The position numbers were made by a program, and so were the translations under genes. From the NCBI GenBank assembly GCA_965287045.1, contig OZ336872.1, forward strand, positions 98,270,001-98,334,000: a DNA stretch of 64,000 nt, read 5' to 3'. Of the stretch, positions 8,260 to 45,307 are shown piece by piece (positions within the stretch are counted from its first letter, which is position 1; each line of letters begins with the position of its first letter). Below the pieces are notes generated by a model that saw only the letters and a list, made by a program, of their open reading frames with translations, was not told the origin of the DNA and ran no database searches. This DNA comes from Carcharhinus amblyrhynchos. Taxonomy: Eukaryota.

Positions 8260-8876
8260 TCAGACAGCACTGTCTCTGAATAATATAGTGTCAGTATGAT
8301 CACCGTTGATGCTGACAACAAAATCATTCTGCTTAGCATCCTTTGGATGAAGAAGCACAGGGAATCCAGGAACTGTCTTGTCAAAGTTTTCCATGGTAAT
8401 TTTGTAGTAACCTTTGGAAGTGCAGCTTATTACAGAGGCAAACTGTTGACTGAGTTGAATTTCCTCAGCAATATAGGAGGTTCTCTTTTGGCAAGTCTCT
8501 CCTGTATCTTCCTGTTCTGCTGTCAAGAAAATTACTATCTCATAGTAGGCTGGCATCTTTCCTTGAATCAGTGGATAAAGAGGGCTGTTTTGATTGATGG
8601 TGTGGCAGAACATAAGTGGAAAGACAAGGTATGGACTCTCGTTTGAGTTCATGTTGTCGACGTGAAAGTCGAGGTTTGTCTGATGAAGGTGTTGGTTTTT
8701 GTACTCTTGGTATAGAATGGCAGTTACTTTAACGCGTGTTAATGGACTTTGTCTGATGTTGGCTACTCTAAACATCAAACAAGGCTCCCCTTCACGGTTT
8801 CCAACAGTAGCAAAGTAACTGAATTTAATTGCAGTTGCTCTAAGCTTTGGTCTGGCAATCTTTGCCACAAAGGCAC
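8260..8876 (-). CDS. KCNJ13: Kir7.1, last coding exon (cytoplasmic domain to stop)
   Basis: Acceptor T11-ACAG|GT. Joins in frame as ITG-AFVAKIARPK; contains CLMFRVAN.R.SPL, QKRTSY and MENFDKTVP. 478+617=1095 nt, giving 364 aa plus stop. Confidence 0.97.
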
Positions 8877-9315
8877 CTGTAAAAAAAAAAATTAACTTTA
8901 ATAAGTAAACTTTCTGGAAAAATTATTTCTACTATGAGACACTAGCATATTATTAGTGCTAACGTATATCGTACATTATGACCCCAGAATCAAATCCTCA
9001 TCCCTTTGTAAGCAATTTAATGAATGTCCCAAGCCATTGTCTTAATATAAAGTGACTGTGCAATCAATAACTTTCATGCTATTTAAAAAGATCAGATATA
9101 TATACATGAAGGCATTGTAAAGATATTTTTTCATTGTTTGAAGCTACAGTATTTAATAAGCCGTTACATGCCCTGACTGCATATCCACAATTCTTTAAAA
9201 TGGTTTAGTAGTTGCAGATAATTCAGTCATTCAGACCTTCAAAATCTGCTGAGATTATATAATAAAATTCAGAGAAGCATTTCTCTTGAATTATATTCTT
9301 TTAAAGAATAATTAC

Positions 9316-9793
9316 CTGTAATTAAAGCTTCCACCATGAGTCCTAGCAGCATCTGGATTGCAAGAAGTGCAATGGCAGCTGGACAGTCACCATCAGGGTA
9401 CATGGTTCCATAACCAATTGTAAGCTGAGTTTCCAGGGAGAATGAGAAGGCTGCTGTGAAGCTGTCGATATATTTCACACAGATGGTGTGGTTTTCTGGA
9501 GGGTTGTTATGATCGAGCAGATCTAAATCACCATTTGTATATGCCAATAAGTACCAAAAGCAGGCAAAGAAGAGCCAATGAGCAACAAAAGCTCCTGAAA
9601 ACGTCAGTAACATCCAGCGCCATCTCATTTCCACTAAGATTGACCAGATATCTTTTAGGTGTACAATGCTTTTTCCGCTGAGGGACTCCATCTTGAGATT
9701 GCTGTGCCCATTCTTAGTGATGATTCTTTTGTACCGAAATGCTACAAGTGGCGCAGTGACTTTTTCGTCACTATCATTGAAAACCATGTCCAT
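9316..9793 (-). CDS. KCNJ13: Kir7.1 inward-rectifier K+ channel, first coding exon (N-terminus, M1, pore, M2)
   Basis: ORF reads RIITKNGH...MRWRWMLL...NHTICV...[24 protein letters not shown]. It has the Kir7.1-type Met after GYGT. Donor ACAG|GTAAT at 9316/9315, 478 nt, phase 1. Acceptor candidates lie just upstream of the ATG (exon start 9814 or 9805). Confidence 0.97.
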
Positions 9794-10384
9794 TATTTTG
9801 CTCTCCTGGATTAGCTGTAGAACATATTGTCAGAATGTTAGTATTTGCAACTACTGGGAGTTCAATTATCATCTCATTATCTATATTTGTCTTTTTAGCA
9901 ATTACTTGTGTTGTGGATTTGCAGGATTACTTATTTACCTATTTACTTATTAACTTATTTACTTATTAACCTTTTTTCTATACTACATAAGCAGTTCCAT
10001 CCTAATGAATAGATTTCATGCACTCTTTCAGTTCAATTCATCTGGTTATTTGATGGGGCATGGGCTTGTGTTTCCCTGAAATTCTTATTGCAGTATTTTG
10101 AGAGTGCGCATTTGGAAGTGAATTTATAAAAAAAAATTAATTTTCTTCTTTGAAATTTTGAAGTGGTTAGGAAGGATCCTCGTTGTCAAGTTTTCAGATC
10201 GTGTATTTTTTTCAAATTTTTATTGATCCTTTTTGTATACATTAGCTTGATGTTAAATTCTATATCTCAAAGGACAGAGTGGTGTGATAGTAGTTCAATG
10301 TCAGATATGGATGGTATATCAAAATTTAAATAAACAGTGATAAATGAAAATTTATTATATAGCCCCTCAGTTTGCCAAATTGCC

Positions 10385-10496
10385 CCTTGATGTCAGAGGA
10401 CTAGCTAGAGTAAATGTTTGGGGTTATGGGTATTGGGATTGTTCAGTGCAGACTCGATGGGCCGAATGGCCTCCTTCAGCACTGAAGGGCTTCTAA
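10385..10496 (+). mobile_element. 5'-truncated tRNA-derived SINE (HE1/V-SINE-like)
   Basis: 3' part 'gtgcagactcgatgggccgaatggcctccttc' is shared with the other SINE copies. Confidence 0.75.
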
Positions 10497-10976
10497 ATGT
10501 CATGTGGTAAGGATCTGATTTGAAAAGCATTTTAATTCTGTGTAAATGTAACAAACATGTTCACTGAGCATTTTTTGCTTTATTAACATCAGTTTCATTG
10601 AGTAGTAGTCTAAGACTTGACTAGTGGAAGTTTCCTTAACCTGCTAGCCTTGGTTTTTATTCACTAAAGTAGTTGCAGTGGGCAAACTTGATTGGTTTGT
10701 GCCTTGCTGAAGTTATATTAATGGTCAATTTCAGAATTATGTTCTCTTTGTTGATTTATTTGGAATAAAGTTTTCTCCAATATTCAGGTTTAAACATCCA
10801 CAGTGTTTCTTGGATCTTTAATAATTCTGTTCTTTTTAATATCAAATGTATTGATGCAGCTATAGTGCAAATAGTAGTTTAGAAGGCTCCATGTGCTTCA
10901 AATTAGAGAAATGCTGCAGATACAATGAACTTTTTAATTCTAGTTACGGAACTCTACATAGAGCTGTTTGATCTAA

Positions 10977-11052
10977 ACATAAGAACATAAGAAATAGGAG
11001 CAGGAGTAGGCCATCTAGCCCTTCGAGCCTGCCCCGCCATTCAATAAGATCA
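10977..11052 (-). mobile_element. CR1-type LINE extreme 3' end with tandem tail
   Basis: aacataagaacataagaaataggagcaggagtaggccat...ccattcaataagatc. Confidence 0.75.
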
Positions 11053-12024
11053 ATGTCCTGAGTTTGTGTGGATTGCCTGTAGTTATATAGCCTGTGCTGA
11101 GATTGGCAAGACTGAGTATGAATCTTTTAGATAATATTGAATTTTTTTCCCCTTCAATTTGGAGGCGTTCATGGAAAGTTCTTTTCAATTTAGGTTCCTG
11201 ATTTATATTGCAAAGTTTTTAGGTTAGCTTAATAAAATTGACATTGATTTTCTTTGATTCTTTAAAATAGATCCTACTGAAGAAAAAGATATATTTTGCA
11301 ATTATAAGTTTGTTGGCAACAGTATATTGTAGAATTGTGGCTTGAATGTTGATTTGTACTTAAATCATGTTCAATTCATTGTAGTATATTGAATATAAAC
11401 TGAAAGATCAATTGTTATCCAAAATGAAAATTTCCATGTTTACTTTGTGAAACATAAGACCTTGACTTTGAGTAATGAGGCACATACAGTTTGCGACTAC
11501 TTGATACACCAAATGCAGTTTTAAATTTCAGCTGAATAGTTTTTTTGAGTTTTATGATAAGATGTGTTTTATGTAAAACTGTATCACCTAGTGTCATGAT
11601 ACAGATATGAATTAAATTGACTTTAAAAGTTGAATTTAACTTGTTAACATTTATATGTAATAAATTGATCTTCCAGGGACTTTGAATAGGGGTGCAAGCG
11701 AATTTACTGTTTCAAAATTAAAGTTTTTTTCCCCTGAATTAAAGCCAGAAGTTTGTTTCGAAAGATACTAAGATTGTGCTTGTTTCTTGCTTAACATTAA
11801 ATGTTAATATAGCTTTAAAGTTGAATTATTGATGCTTAAGTTTGCATTTAAGTCTTGTGCATTGAATGTAACCTTAACCTTAAGTATCAGAAAATGATTG
11901 TGTAAACATGATCTCTTAAAGTTAGTGATTTACACAAGCAAATTATTGTTTGATGTGTGTCATCTAGTTTTATAAGATGAAGTATACTTCAATAAGCTAA
12001 CATTTCATAAAATCAGGTACTTAC

Positions 12025-12360
12025 CGAAATATGGAAGTTTTACAGATTTCTTCTTGCTTGCAAATTTCATTTGCAGTTTTACAAATGAACGCAAATCTGT
12101 TTATTGCGGTGGACACAAGATAAGACTTGTGTTTGCACTGTTATGTTGATCTTCATTATACAGTTACATGGGTTAGGAATGTGAGTATATAGAATATGAG
12201 CTATTGTTTCGTTTTAGCCCTAATAAGGTTAGGCATTTTGCCTACAGGTGGCCAATTAAATGGATTGAAATGGTGAGACTTCTTATGTTCTATTTATGAT
12301 GTTAGGTAGCTCAGGTAAATGTTTAGTACGGAAGTGAATTAAGCTTCTACCCCACCCCCT
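12025..12360 (-). promoter_or_regulatory. KCNJ13: Candidate KCNJ13 promoter plus non-coding first exon, proximal copy
   Basis: Minus-strand donor CG|GTAAGTA at 12025/12024; TATAATG at 12154-12160; homologous to 12701-13030. Confidence 0.55.
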
Positions 12361-12700
12361 CCCCAACAAAGCAGCTTTAGTGAAATGGGTTCCTATCAGA
12401 ACTGAATTTTATTTGCATCAAATATACATCAGAGGTTTGTTTTAAAGGTTACTTAAAATTGTAATTTTTACTTTATAAATAAATGTTTATCTGGATTTAA
12501 ATATCAATTCTTGATTCTTCATATTTGTAAATCTGAAGAAAATGTCTCAAAAATTGGTCATTTTATAAAGATTTATATTAAAGTTAGGTATTTATGTGTG
12601 CACGTTATTAAGTCTGGTCATTCATGACATGCAGTCTTCTAAAATGAAATATAGTTTAACAAATTTAACAAATTAACATTTCACAATATTAGGTACTTAC

Positions 12701-13030
12701 CAAAATATGGAAGTTTTACAAGTATGTTACTGCTTGTAAATCTGGCTTGCCGCTTGATTGATGAATGCAAAAATATTAAGGCAGTGAACACTGAAGATGA
12801 GGCTTGTGTGTGCAGTCTTACATGGTACTCTTTTATAGAGTTACATGGGTTATGTACTATATAATCAGCTGCTTCTTTTTAGAACTAATAAAGCCAGCCA
12901 TTTTGCCAACATGTGGCCAATTAAAAGGGCTGAAATTGAGAGACTTGTCAGGTTGTATTTATGTCGTTAGGTGACTCAGGTTAATATTTATTGGAGAATT
13001 ACTGTATGTCAAATTTCCTCCTCCACTACC
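12701..13030 (-). promoter_or_regulatory. KCNJ13: Candidate KCNJ13 promoter plus non-coding first exon, distal copy
   Basis: Minus-strand donor TG|GTAAGTA at 12701/12700; TATAAAAG at 12830-12837; CATGTG E-box 12910-12915; TGACTCA 12972-12978; HNF1-like GTTAATATTTATT 12980-12992. Confidence 0.6.
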
Positions 13031-13368
13031 CCTCTGAAAGCAATGTAGGATCCTCATTACTTTTGGTAAAACAGTTCTCATCAGAGGCAGGTCACCTTTT
13101 CCAGTTTCTGCTAGCATTTGTTGTAATCACTTAGCTTGTTAAATAACATTAAGATGAATGGCATATCTGAAGTTCAAGCAAAATGTTGTTAAACTTTGAT
13201 CATTGTGGCATTCAGCTTCTCACACAAGTTAATTCAAAGGAACGCTGTCAAACTTAAATCTCTCCTGACCTTATTATTGAACTGTACCTCCCTCTCTGCA
13301 ATTGCAGAGCAATATCGATAGCTTTTGAGAAATTAGAAACTTGGATGCTTTGTTCCACTAACAGGAAT

Positions 13369-14000
13369 AGGTGTCGTGTGTGAATGATCAGTGAAGGGAG
13401 GGAAAAATGTACATGCAATAAATAAGCTATGCAGGTATCTATATAACCATTGTTAAGTTAAACAGTGAAAATTAATTAAATTCTCGAATGTAGAATATTG
13501 TATAGCCTACGGTAGTGAATTGTATTACACTTAACTATTAAATTGAATCTAATCTCAAATTCATAATCTGAAATTGGGCCAGAGTTGCAGCAATTAACTG
13601 TTGCCATACTGTCTGATCTTGGCTCCCTCTGGGCTATGTCACTAGAGATGGGCTGGCCATCTTCATACCTGTATGTACTACAAAGGCAGGAGGGCTTTGC
13701 ACTTGATCTGTGAATGCCCTGAAGATTACCAGCCCATCTCCAATGACACAGCCCAGAGGGAGCTATGACCAGACAGCATGGTGACAGTTAATTGCTGCAA
13801 CTTTGGCCCTATTAGTGCTGAGATTAGATCCATTTTAATAGTTGAGAATAGTAATTCTTTCAGTTAGCTATACAGTACTTTAGAGGCAATAATTTTAATT
13901 AGTTAACTGTTCAGTTAACAATGGTTATGTAGATCTGTATAACTTACTTATTGCATGTGCATTTTTGCCCTGCATTGCTGACCACTTACGTGTCACACCT
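13369..14000. repeat. Long imperfect inverted repeat (fold-back/MITE-like), arms ~290 bp, spacer 54 bp
   Basis: 13369-13665 aligns with the reverse complement of 13720-14000; e.g. gggccagagttgcagcaattaactgt pairs with acagttaattgctgcaactttggccc. Confidence 0.92.
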
Positions 14001-16649
14001 TGATTAAGAAAGCACATCTGCTTTTTGTTGCTTTTATTGTCCCTTTGGGACAGTTTTCCTGCTTGTATGGTCACAACGAAGGGAAAGGTGAAGTAGTGTA
14101 GGAGTTACACTCATAGCGTAGTGGTCGTACAAAACTCTTAAGGACTTGACCCTGCTACTTTCTTTATCCTGTCCTGGTGAAGCTGTTCAGCTCAAAACTT
14201 TGATCAAAGCTTCAGAGTGCTGATTATGATGGCTTAGACCCTACAATCACAATGCATAGTGAGTGCTTAAATGTTCACTGCTGTTGAGTGTTGCAGTGGC
14301 ATCGGAGGTTCCAGAGTGCCAATTTATACCTGACCCCAGAAAATCTAAACTTCAGAAATGGTTCCATAGGGTTGATTGTCCTCCAGGAAGCAGTAAAGGC
14401 AAATTTGGGAAGTTTGTCCTATAACACTGGTATACTTTTGGCTGTTCCCTCGTGTACAATTTAAAATGGGAGTGGGGTCAGTAGCATATGCTCCCTCTGG
14501 CGAGAACGTCTGGGTGAATTCACTGCCGTTCTCCCACTTGGAGAGGATACAGTTAACTAAAATATTATTTTCCTAGTTGCAAGATTTAGGGACTTAGCTG
14601 GCCAGTGGGCTAACTGACAGATGAAAATTAAAAATTCAGGAATTTTACTTGCCCCTTTTTAAATGTGGCTGACATATTGAGATTCAATTTCTAATGAATA
14701 ACTTTCAAATTTGGTACCTACATGTTTGGAATGTTGGGTGCAGCACATGAGGTAACTTGCATTAGATGTTTGAACAGTGTCTGCTTGGTGCATTAGCTGT
14801 GAGGAGCTGGAATTCACACTTGGAATGTGTAGAGTATTTATATAATTTAGATAGAGAGGACCTGCACTTTATAGTGCTTTTCATAACCTCTGAACATTGC
14901 AAAGCGCTTTCTAACCAGCACTTTTCAAATCTATTCCATTTTTGGACTGCAAGGACCATGGCATTCAGTTTGTGCCTAACGAGCTACCACAAATAACAAC
15001 GACATAAATAACTAATTCAGATTACTTTTTAATACACATGACACAAAATAGGAATGATAGTTTTATGTGTGTCAAGCTTTTATTTCATGATAGCCTCTTG
15101 ACTTTTACCTGCTGCAGGTGTTTAAGTTTAAACTACTAAGTTTATCCCTTTGCCAAACAAGGATGCTACATTGCCAGTTTGCCAGTTCTTTGCAATTTAC
15201 ACATCCAGGTATATTTGTGCTCCTAGGCTCTGCAATGGCACCTCTGACATTCCAAGATCAACGCCATCAGAGTTGGGTGCCATTTTTGCTCTTGTGCTTG
15301 ACCAACTTTTTAAGTGCAACTTTACCTATTTTCATGCTATATGCTTGCCCACCTTCCCCTTGCATTAGTTCATTCCCATTGTTGCATTCTTCTGTGAGAG
15401 TGGAGGCCTACAACTTAGTCTCGTTATTGGTTGAAATATGGTATCAGTGAAGTACGTGGGTCCTTTTCATAGCTCAAAGTTGAGAAGATGTTAGATTAGC
15501 AGGGACATGGATCAGCCTTGAAAGTAACCTTTCATTGGGGCAGTAACCTTGATCGGCTGCACAAGACATATGGAGTAGTTATTAAATTTCACAATCAGGT
15601 GGAAAGATGGAATTAATAGATAAGCTGCATTTGGAATCAAACTGCTGTTTATTTTTCTCTGTGGCCAGAGGAAATCTAGTGGCGTTTATAATGTGTAGGC
15701 TGATCTACAATGCCAACTTTGCCATACATTCAAAATTAAAATCTATCACTTACATTTAGTGGCATTGCCTAGGACAGCACATTTGCTTTTTGTTGATTTT
15801 ATTGTTCCTACGGGAATAGTTCCAGTATTTCACTGAAGTCCACTATTTCCTTGCTCTGCACAGCCAAAGCAAAAGTGAGAGGACAAAATAAGGAATAGCC
15901 GTTCAAAATTTTGACCCTGCTTTTGTTTCTGTCTTGCTCTAAGGAACCTGTTCAGCCAGAAACTTTGATCAGAATTGCACGTGCAAATTGGTGCTGCATA
16001 AACACGATGCATGCAATCCTCCTACTTTGAAACTACAACAAAAAAAATGAAATACTCGCCCAAGCAGTAAGGCTGAAAGACTTGGCTAGGCATTGGATTA
16101 CATAATTTGATGAGTGTTCAGAATTCTGGTGACTTCTTGTGTAGCTGACAGGTTGTGATTCAATCTTTAGCCAATTAACTTTCAAATTTGGCACTTGCAT
16201 GTTTGGGATTTTAGGGAACTAACTTGCATTGCAGCTTTGAACAATACCTGCCATTCAACTTGGGGAGATTTAAAACTGTTTAATTAGCCAATGATTCTTC
16301 TGATCCTAATTTGTTTAGATAAGATATTAAAAAGTCAGTAAAGTGTGTCTTCATTCAAAAAATGTTCGCTACTTCACCTAAAGTTGAGTGATGCATGTCA
16401 CGGCTGCGATAACAAATATTTCAGTTTAGGATTAATTGGTCAAAAGATGCTGTAAAATCTATGCTGAATTTGTGTGCAAGTTTGTGTTCAACCAAAAACA
16501 CATGCTTACTTGACTAAAACATAGTGCAGAAGCCTATAGTAAGACTACAATGTTTATTTTCTGTCACTGTCTAAGCATTCACTGATAATTTGGGTTCTTG
16601 ACCCTTGCACTTAAATTCTCATTGCCAGCATTTGGTCAGAAATCAGTGT

Positions 16650-16760
16650 TTGAGTTAACGTATCTGGTCCAAAGGAATTTGGACTCAAAGTTAACTCTGT
16701 TTTTCTCCACAGATGCTGCCAGATCTGCTTAGTATTTCCAGCATCTGCAGTATTTTGCTT
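16650..16760 (+). mobile_element. Penelope-like repeat fragment
   Basis: gttaactctgtttttctccacagatgctgccagatctgc...ccagcatctgcagtattttgcttt. Confidence 0.6.
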
Positions 16761-17544
16761 TAATTTTAGCTAATCTTGGTTGCCACAAAAATTGTAAGAG
16801 CATGCTTTAAAGACTAACAAAAGCAGCATTCTCTTCATGTCAGCTTTTCTTTAAATGTAGTGGTTTTGATAAATGCAATAAATTAGTTTACAGTAGCAGG
16901 ACAAAAATGTTCATTAATTAGATATATTTCTACTGTTTTCAAAATATTTTTCTGACACAAAGTTGTTGATGCCACCACAAGTGAAATTTGGCACTTGAGT
17001 GAACAGGGCAACCAACAAAGTATTTCCACAATCAATTAGATTTAAGGATTTGGAAACGGGTACAGAAAGGACTGAGGAGAAAGATGAATTCAACATCAGA
17101 TCAAACATACCGGCAAAATAAAGTAGGAAAAAATTGGATTAAGGAAAAAAATTAAATGTTAAATACGACTTATCTCCATGAAAAATTCAAAGCTTGAAGG
17201 GGTGAGACCCCACACAATAGTTAAGAAAACAGAAATAATTAACATGGCATTAAAATGTCTAACTTGATTTTCTGGGGCAAGATTAATGGGCAAATACAGC
17301 GGGCTCATTAAAAAGGAGGCAGGCTGAGGATGCTGTTTTCGGAACAGCATGACACAAGCGGCAAATGTTGGATATTGATATTTAACTGTGCATCTGCTTG
17401 CTTTAAGTTGGACTATTTATTCCAACTAACGGTGCCCATTAACTTTGTTTTGGCAGCAAATTCTGATTGTGTGTGGTGTTTCCTTTTAAAATTTTTGTTA
17501 AATATAGGAATCTCAAAAAAAACTCTTTATTTCACCGGCATCCT

Positions 17545-20686: not shown

Positions 20687-20703
20687 ATGCTTTTTGTATT
20701 TAG

Positions 20704-20877
20704 GGAGACCGACTTTTGAAGAATTGGGATCATCAACAAGAAAGCATGAATTCACCCGTTCAGAGAGTGAAAACTGGCGAGTCTGCAGAGATGAGCAGAA
20801 TGGTGAGGACGATGATGGAGGTTGGCGTTTAGCAGGTCCTCGTCGAGAAGGGGACAGATGGCAACCTCATAGTCCAG
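20704..20877 (+). CDS. GIGYF2: GIGYF2 internal exon (GRPTFEE...RSESENWR...WQPHSP)
   Basis: TTTAG| acceptor, CAG|GTATGG donor, 174 nt, phase 1/1. Translation matches the GIGYF RSESENWR/DGGWRLAG block. Confidence 0.95.
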
Positions 20878-43389: not shown

Positions 43390-43589
43390 CACTTATTATC
43401 TCCATCCTTTCAAAACATTTAAATTTATTCTCCATGGCTTGGTCAACCCTACCTTGTGTGTCTTTTTTCCAGTCCTGGTTTCCTCCCAAAAGTGATGTTT
43501 CTCCTGAATCTATGTGCTGTGCTTCTTGTCCTACCATTGATGACTGTGGATTTACCTGTCCTGTTCTTTGAAACTCCCACTGGAACCTA

Positions 43590-44854
43590 CATCTCTCCAC
43601 TTTCCCTCCATCTTTCCACTTTCCCTCCATCTTTCCACTTTCCCTCCATCTCTCCACTTTCCCTCCATCTCTCCACTTTCCCTCCATCTCTCCACTTTCC
43701 CTCCATCTCTCCACTTTCCCTCCATCTCGCCACTTTCCCTCCATCTCGCCACTTTCCCTCCATCTCGCCACTTTCCCTCCATCTCGCCACTTTCCCTCCA
43801 TCTCGCCACTTTCCCTCCATCTCGCCACTTTCCCTCCATCTCGCCACTTTCCCTCCATCTCGCCACTTTCCCTCCATCTCGCCACTTTCCCTCCATCTCG
43901 CCACTTTCCCTCCATCTCGCCACTTTCCCTCCATCTCGCCACTTTCCCTCCATCTCGCCACTTTCCCTCCATCTCGCCACTTTCCCTCCATCTCGCCACT
44001 TTCCCTCCATCTCGCCACTTTCCCTCCATCTCGCCACTTTCCCTCCATCTCGCCACTTTCCCTCCATCTCGCCACTTTCCCTCCATCTCGCCACTTTCCC
44101 TCCATCTCGCCACTTTCCCTCCATCTCGCCACTTTCCCTCCATCTCGCCACTTTCCCTCCATCTCGCCACTTTCCCTCCATCTCGCCACTTTCCCTCCAT
44201 CTCGCCACTTTCCCTCCATCTCGCCACTTTCCCTCCATCTCGCCACTTTCCCTCCATCTCGCCACTTTCCCTCCATCTCGCCACTTTCCCTCCATCTCGC
44301 CACTTTCCCTCCATCTCGCCACTTTCCCTCCATCTCGCCACTTTCCCTCCATCTCGCCACTTTCCCTCCATCTCGCCACTTTCCCTCCATCTCGCCACTT
44401 TCCCTCCATCTCGCCACTTTCCCTCCATCTCGCCACTTTCCCTCCATCTCGCCACTTTCCCTCCATCTCGCCACTTTCCCTCCATCTCGCCACTTTCCCT
44501 CCATCTCGCCACTTTCCCTCCATCTCGCCACTTTCCCTCCATCTCGCCACTTTCCCTCCATCTCGCCACTTTCCCTCCATCTCGCCACTTTCCCTCCATC
44601 TCGCCACTTTCCCTCCATCTCGCCACTTTCCCTCCATCTCGCCACTTTCCCTCCATCTCGCCACTTTCCCTCCATCTCGCCACTTTCCCTCCATCTCGCC
44701 ACTTTCCCTCCATCTCGCCACTTTCCCTCCATCTCGCCACTTTCCCTCCATCTCGCCACTTTCCCTCCATCTCGCCACTTTCCCTCCATCTCGCCACTTT
44801 CCCTCCATCTCGCCACTTTCCCTCCATCTCGCCACTTTCCCTCCATCTCGCCAC
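43590..44854. repeat. 19-bp minisatellite (CCACTTTCCCTCCATCTCG)n, about 66 copies
   Basis: Read directly; near-perfect array; the 19-aa periodicity of the ORFs equals 3 units. Confidence 0.98.
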
Positions 44855-45307
44855 TGACAAAACCTTTGGTTATTTCGCCAATCTTAAGTTTCTGGCACAG
44901 TGTTTGTTTTCATTGCGCTCACTTGTGAAGTGCTATGGGATATTTCTCATCTTAAAGATACTATATAAACGTCGTCTTTAGTTTATGGTGCAAGAGGTTT
45001 AGCAGGCTCCGCAAAATTGATGTATTCTTTTGTTGTCTTTGTTACACACTTTTTATGTAGTGAGGGAAGCTGATTACTTCGAACTAATTCAATTGTATTA
45101 TCCTTTCACTTTAAACATGCTTACTCTTCAGTGTTTCCAACATTGTGTTAATCTGCTTTTCTCTGGAAGGATATTCCCCAGTACATCGCTGCCTGTAAAG
45201 CGTTTGTGCAAAATACTGTATTATCTTTATTACTCAGATTATTTTTCTATTCATAAATATTTATAAATTCATTTGAGGGATAAGCATTGATGATAAGACC
45301 AGCTATT

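Follow-up and report, generated by a model that had tools for sequence, protein, structure and literature searches.

The 5′ end of KCNJ13 in Carcharhinus amblyrhynchos contains a leader-exon unit duplicated in tandem, the proximal copy of which (A) corresponds to an exon that a related shark splices to the first coding exon. The explanation that we favour, tentatively and with a confidence just short of even, is that A serves as a first exon, driven by a promoter of its own, and that the distal copy (B) is a 52-nt internal exon fed by a promoter located farther upstream. The ancestral leader exon would have been a first/internal hybrid, used also as an internal exon of ~55 nt after an upstream exon (U). 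The ~676-bp unit would have been duplicated head-to-tail; A would then have lost the acceptor, retaining promoter and donor, and B would have retained acceptor and donor, with a relaxation of its promoter. Two routes would result, A to exon 2 and U (copy C) to B to exon 2, both encoding the same protein and differing in promoter and 5′UTR. The complete scheme, in which two separate local duplications split the two-route 5′ end of KCNJ13, leaving A as a first-only exon and B as an internal-only exon fed by C, the copy of U that keeps its donor, is possible but calls for clear reserve.

The KCNJ13 locus and its duplicated leader unit

The gene is located on the minus strand of the window, i.e., the whole stretch of 64,000 nucleotides that was analysed. 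Its identification as KCNJ13, nested antisense within a GIGYF2 intron, is upheld: the frame 9793-9317 matches KCNJ13/Kir7.1 among solved structures (E 1e-68, next family 4e-38), among named proteins it is closest to those of shark KCNJ13 (94% for Scyliorhinus canicula), and GIGYF2 exons, recognized by tblastn with GYF-protein homologues, flank it on either side on the plus strand. The host intron (G000:C3:98266398-98290703) is 24.3 kb long; it begins 3.6 kb before the window and ends at 20703. KCNJ13 exon 2 is preceded by tandem acceptors at 9814 and 9805, 9 nt apart, the former being used in both informative contigs (X9 and X10, see below). A GIGYF2 intron also contains, at 43586-44855, a 57-bp minisatellite of ~22 copies, nearly identical to one another, in which both strands have open frames.

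Comparison of the window with itself by blastn aligned 11998-12325 with 12674-12990 (332 columns, 74.7%, E 9e-52). The two diverged copies of the preliminary description are thus homologous and adjacent, but their extent, given there as ~350 bp, is too small: the duplication comprises the entire period of ~676 bp, arranged head-to-tail (approximate limits in Table 1), and the intronic halves of A and B align too, with a score of 94 versus -6 for the best shuffle and -42 for the best unrelated stretch. At the sensitivity of the search, the unit is not dispersed, since at least two matches were found in the 2.92-Gb genome of the same species, counts being lower bounds, and both of these are in the window; a dispersed repeat or transposon fragment was discarded on this ground. 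An assembly artefact was also rejected, because about one quarter of the letters differ between the copies, as was a known structured RNA gene, because Rfam gave no match at gathering score; three weak matches in 9800-17000 were far below it, and none fell in the A/B unit. Between units B and C, the region 13523-13853 contains nested inverted repeats, with 94-nt arms that are 86% complementary and 35-nt outer arms, and it resembles a miniature inverted-repeat transposon remnant.

Table 1. Position, strand and supporting evidence of the features discussed in the text; a slash within a motif or a pair of positions marks a splice boundary.
Feature	Position	Strand	Evidence and remarks
KCNJ13 last coding exon (to stop)	8260..8876	-	IRK_C Pfam; spliced joint 8874/9314 in run X2
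KCNJ13 first coding exon (exon 2)	9316..9814	-	Acceptor 9815/9814, ATG 9793; Kir7.1 match and X9 contig
Unit A, proximal copy of ~676-bp tandem duplication	11705..12375	-	Self-comparison
Exon A, non-coding leader	12025..12175	-	Donor TCG/GTAAGT 12025/12024, used in relative; putative 5′ end
14-nt identical block	12162..12175 (B: 12839-12852)	-	At putative start of exon A
12-nt identical block, inverted CCAAT / TAATTG core	12249..12260 (B: 12914-12925)	-	Putative factor identity
Unit B, distal copy	12376..13050	-	Self-comparison
Candidate 52-nt internal exon in B	12701..12752	-	AG ending 12753 (12/17 pyrimidines), donor TTG/GTAAGT 12701/12700; P0200 residues 73-90
TATAAAAG, 8/8 TATA consensus, B only	12830..12837	-	Consensus scoring; putative element
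Upstream exon U, copy C	14653..14780	-	GC-type donor GGG/GCAAGT (14653/14652); P0200 match; putative exon
Upstream exon U, copy D	16140..16260	-	GT/GC of the homologous donor missing
GIGYF2 exon closing host intron	20704..20877	+	tblastn with GYF-protein homologues; boundaries read

A position check found every motif named in the preliminary description where it had been placed. Both copies carry a minus-strand donor G/GTAAGTA (12025/12024 in A, 12701/12700 in B); the string GGTAAGT occurs on this strand just at these two sites between 9815 and 21000, and four times in the whole window. Read on the plus strand as GIGYF2 acceptors (CAG/G and TAG/G), the same sites were discarded, since they have no tract of pyrimidines and are used, according to RNA, on the minus strand. 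Farther upstream, the 14-nt block AGTTACATGGGTTA is identical in A (12162) and B (12839), and TGGCCAATTAAA is present in both (12249 and 12914). The E-boxes are CAGGTG in A (12245) versus CATGTG in B (12910), the HNF1-like motifs are GTAAATGTTTAGT (12315) and GTTAATATTTATT (12980), respectively, and B has an AP-1 motif, TGACTCA, at 12972. As for the TATA-like boxes that had been proposed, the distal one, TATAAAAG, fits TATAWAWR at 8/8 positions, and B also carries a TA-rich site scoring 7/8, which precedes the conserved block by 30 nt; the proximal TATAATG (12160-12154) scores under 7/8 and would fall inside the putative exon A. Local frequencies per 350 bp are 3.8 for CANNTG, 0.95 for ATTGG/CCAAT, 0.25 for CATGTG, 0.3 for TATAWAWR and 0.05 for TGACTCA; the motifs being mostly at chance frequency, the assignment of factors or tissues from their differences was abandoned.

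The 14-nt block holds an ATG-TAA start-stop pair on the minus strand (12169 in A, 12846 in B), and B has a second one at 12823; lying near the putative cap, these pairs probably go untranslated, and ATGTAA is locally common (0.28 per 350 bp). Exon A contains an out-of-frame upstream ATG at 12070, in weak context and overlapping the main start, and the last 107 nt of the B exon contain no upstream ATG, so that translation efficiency could differ between the two leaders.

Spliced contigs and the putative upstream exon

Thirteen runs were guessed to be RNA-like, all of them assembled contigs, and eight of them were aligned to the window; X9, X10 and X2 were taken as RNA because exons are joined at splice sites. 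Contigs from X1, X2, X4, X8, X13 and X3 stop short of the 9814 acceptor, which is reached in two of the eight runs, X9 and X10. In both, the loose ends at 9314 run into the last coding exon of KCNJ13. The X9 contig, from organism D, is 2982 nt long with a depth of 195; it covers 9314-9815, shows splicing on either side of exon 2, and differs from the window at 43 of 502 coding-exon letters. The first 30 letters of its 5′ loose end, of ~147-148 nt, match A at 29 positions and B at 24, the best placement elsewhere in the window giving 20; the junction from 12025 to 9814 that had been predicted is therefore present in the spliced contig of organism D. The X10 contig, from organism E (depth 8), comprises, as we parse it, 18 letters of exon 2 and then ~144 letters that enter an A/B-type motif from the same 9814 acceptor; its 12 visible letters match A at nine and B at ten positions, which does not distinguish the copies. 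Splicing of B or U was seen in none of the eight runs, two of which reach the acceptor and none of these from the species of the window; the lack of a B-type contig is no sign of silence, as assembled contigs lose minor forms.

The proposed length of ~105 nt for the first exons and the proximal TATA found no support, since the sequence beyond the junction, on its upstream side, measures 148 and ~144 nt in the two contigs. If these 5′ parts are colinear with the genome, as judged on the 30 visible letters of loose ends of 147 and 162 letters, the start would be at ~12168-12172, the edge of the 14-nt block, with TATAATG (12160) inside the exon. We infer that exon A starts at ~12170-12185 and not at 12130, the CCAAT block being ~70-85 nt upstream; assembled contigs as such cannot reveal a transcription start, and the loose ends could instead be a short exon plus U. 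The 5′ lengths are alike in two distant species (D at depth 195, E at depth 8), suggesting a common start. A scan for acceptors over 12025-12375 found no AG with at least 11/17 pyrimidines, the weak CAG at 12097 having 8/17; a spliced A would thus presumably start transcripts, because it has no pyrimidine-backed AG.

Internal use of an A/B-type exon through a 3′ splice site is seen in one predicted protein, the KCNJ13 of Heterodontus francisci (RefSeq XP_067897834.1, hereafter P0200), which has a 98-residue extension. Residues ~30-68 match C (14777-14665, E 5e-7) as well as copy D (16247-16178); the terminal part of exon A is matched by residues 80-89. Placed without gaps on 14736-14653, residues 45-72 give 12/84 minimal mismatches, versus 28 for the next best placement and a median of 47, and the fit ends exactly at GGG/GCAAGT, G[CT]AAGT having a frequency of 0.0007 per base. 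Residues 73-78 fit B from 12752 with 4/18 mismatches and A from 12076 with 5/18; the fit begins directly after the AG of B, of a class found at 0.004 per base and equalled by 43 of 699 intronic AGs, and homology collapses past both break points (15/24 and 13/24). From these break points, in a protein predicted for another species, it can be deduced that, in the Heterodontus gene model, U would be joined to the final ~55 nt of the A/B exon, which would in turn be spliced to the acceptor at 9814. At the ancestral acceptor position A has AA, versus AG in B; the acceptor of B (AAG) and the donor of C (GC, preceded by GG) are weak and may be relics.

C and D (14572-14784 and 16060-16251) form a separate local duplication, with a p of 0.26-0.27, similar to that of A/B; two genome matches are listed for this unit, and a single four-copy module comprising A/B and C/D was rejected, local alignment scores being at shuffle level. 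In copy D, an ATTGG/TAATT block is present near 16290. A second part of the C/D duplication occurs on the minus strand at 13983-14225 and 15747-15989, each copy with a GTAAGT donor (13990, 15754) and an upstream pyrimidine-backed AG (14062, 11/17; 15856, 12/17), which would yield non-coding exons of 72 and 102 nt; the pair possibly corresponds to additional leader exons, or else to an enhancer that was duplicated. Among the other sequences, three sharks have two RefSeq accessions each for one identical KCNJ13 protein, which indicates UTR variants. The N-terminal extension of Heptranchias (P0153) was rejected as an exon, as it is intron read-through at 9875-9798, and the RefSeq isoforms P0194, P0198 and P0205 of Cetorhinus and Rhinoraja start downstream, which implies that the first coding exon contains acceptors in its interior.

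Divergence between the copies and alternative explanations

The ungapped divergence between A and B is 0.30 in the deep intron, 0.32 in the exon body, 0.05 in the last 20 exon letters and 0.19-0.20 in the promoter part; divergence is lowest around the donor, 2/31 letters differing in the donor window. If A alone were constrained, ~0.17 would be expected at fully constrained sites; the promoter part matches this one-neutral-copy level and is thus no proof of a live promoter in B. A low donor divergence together with such a promoter level is the pattern expected if both donors and one promoter have been kept. The two copies may also be complementary in their signals, with the acceptor in B and AA in A; the promoter divergence of B is no more than consistent with a loss. 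The donor window has a P of 0.002 under neutrality of both copies; as an unguided scan its peak is not significant (P 0.41), nor are the conserved-block scan statistics. With organism D as outgroup, 6/7 A/B differences in 30 letters are confined to B, and these six changes leave an 18-nt run beside the donor untouched (P 0.011, post hoc). Between A and organism D, 1/30 letters differ, against 10/57 for the fourfold-site distance, computed from 37 of the 43 differences between the window and D (P 0.023). Overall, A and B have diverged by ~0.38-0.42 substitutions per site, about twice the fourfold distance between window and D (0.20). Moreover, A and organism D share a C at exon position -2, where B, organism E and the Heterodontus codon indicate T; this one site suggests a duplication older than the split from organism D.

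Three other explanations were weighed against the favoured one. If A and B were both first exons with their own promoters, joined to the acceptor at 9814 in different tissues, as previously proposed, one would account for donors that are both intact and 29/31 identical in their surroundings, for the two blocks of 12-14 nt shared by the copies, for a TATA element in B (TATAAAAG, 8/8) better than that of A and accompanied by a 7/8 TA-rich site, and for the RefSeq UTR variants of three sharks. We nevertheless regard it as rather unlikely, considering that no B-type contig occurs among the eight runs, that the promoter divergence equals the one-neutral-copy expectation, that 105-nt exons misfit contig parts of 148 and ~144 nt, that the motif differences are at chance frequency and that the acceptor found only in B is left unexplained; it would be compatible with the favoured explanation if B performs both jobs. 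We also hold it unlikely that B is a decaying leftover, with only A in use and the donor, acceptor and motifs of B persisting by chance in a slowly evolving genome. The statistics for the best window and run do come out of simulations of a dead B as well (P 0.6-0.7), the donor window has a P of 0.09 under such a model, the polarised changes fall mostly on B, and the deep contig of organism D crosses the junction unbroken and is A-type; however, B shows a perfect GTAAGT, an acceptor at the ancestral position and the spared 18-nt run after so many substitutions per site, and the gapped alignment probably underestimates the neutral rate, thus favouring a decaying B in the test.

Finally, A and B might both be internal 5′UTR exons downstream of U, devoid of promoters, the blocks upstream of them being an intronic enhancer. 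In the one Heterodontus protein listed, the exon is internal, the 5′ parts of the contigs could contain a short exon plus U, and A does have the weak CAG at 12097; yet A lacks both the ancestral acceptor and a pyrimidine-backed AG while its donor end is conserved with organism D, the similar 5′ lengths in D and E suggest a common start, and the coding exons of mouse Kcnj13 are preceded by a single non-coding one (PMC5925607). This makes an internal role for both copies highly improbable.

Comparison with known systems and significance

Hybrid first-internal exons have reportedly been described by Fiszbein et al. They resemble the proposed ancestral KCNJ13 leader in that one donor is shared by an own start or by an internal acceptor reached from an upstream exon; unlike them, the shark exon is duplicated and the two inputs are apparently sorted between the copies. 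Such exons are common in human and, according to Mick et al. 2024 (PMC11797052), typically have their starts centred on the 3′ splice site, whereas the putative shark start is ~95-105 nt upstream of it. The comparison extends to arrays of variable first exons originating from tandem duplication, as in UGT1A, clustered protocadherins and plectin, where, as would be the case for A/B, homologous duplicated 5′ modules are joined to a common downstream exon; A/B differs in having two copies, both non-coding and leading to the same protein, with splicing seen for one copy. Subfunctionalisation with complementary loss of signals is known as duplication-degeneration-complementation. The signals of A and B may have undergone a similar complementary loss, but here it would act on a single exon within one gene, not on two genes.

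In other vertebrates, rat Kir7.1 is reportedly transcribed from two promoters, and has several non-coding exons as well as a CCAAT element (Nakamura et al. 2000). As in the shark, non-coding leader exons precede two coding exons also in zebrafish and mouse, with regulation at the 5′ end. Published accounts give five non-coding exons for zebrafish kcnj13 (PMC7404225), three exons in all for mouse Kcnj13, one of them non-coding and ahead of the coding exons (PMC5925607), and a role for cis-regulatory divergence of kcnj13 in shaping Danio patterns (PMC10482006, PMC12632866). Among these genes, an origin of kcnj13 leader exons by local tandem duplication is seen in the shark only. Full-text searches, whose coverage leaves out most subscription journals, listed no study of the 5′ region of kcnj13 in sharks or of a hybrid exon partitioned between duplicates. 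Multiple 5′ exons are thus expected at kcnj13; the new part would be the proposed partition between duplicates.

The proposed partition leaves the protein unchanged and answers no major open question. If true, it would be a case of subfunctionalisation on the level of one non-coding exon, inside the intron of an antisense host, maintained over about twice the divergence between the shark of the window and organism D. It would also represent a compact natural experiment, showing how duplication can uncouple the two functions of one exon, as a start of transcription and as a splice acceptor, and it would map the promoters of Kir7.1, a channel of epithelial and pigment cells, in cartilaginous fishes.
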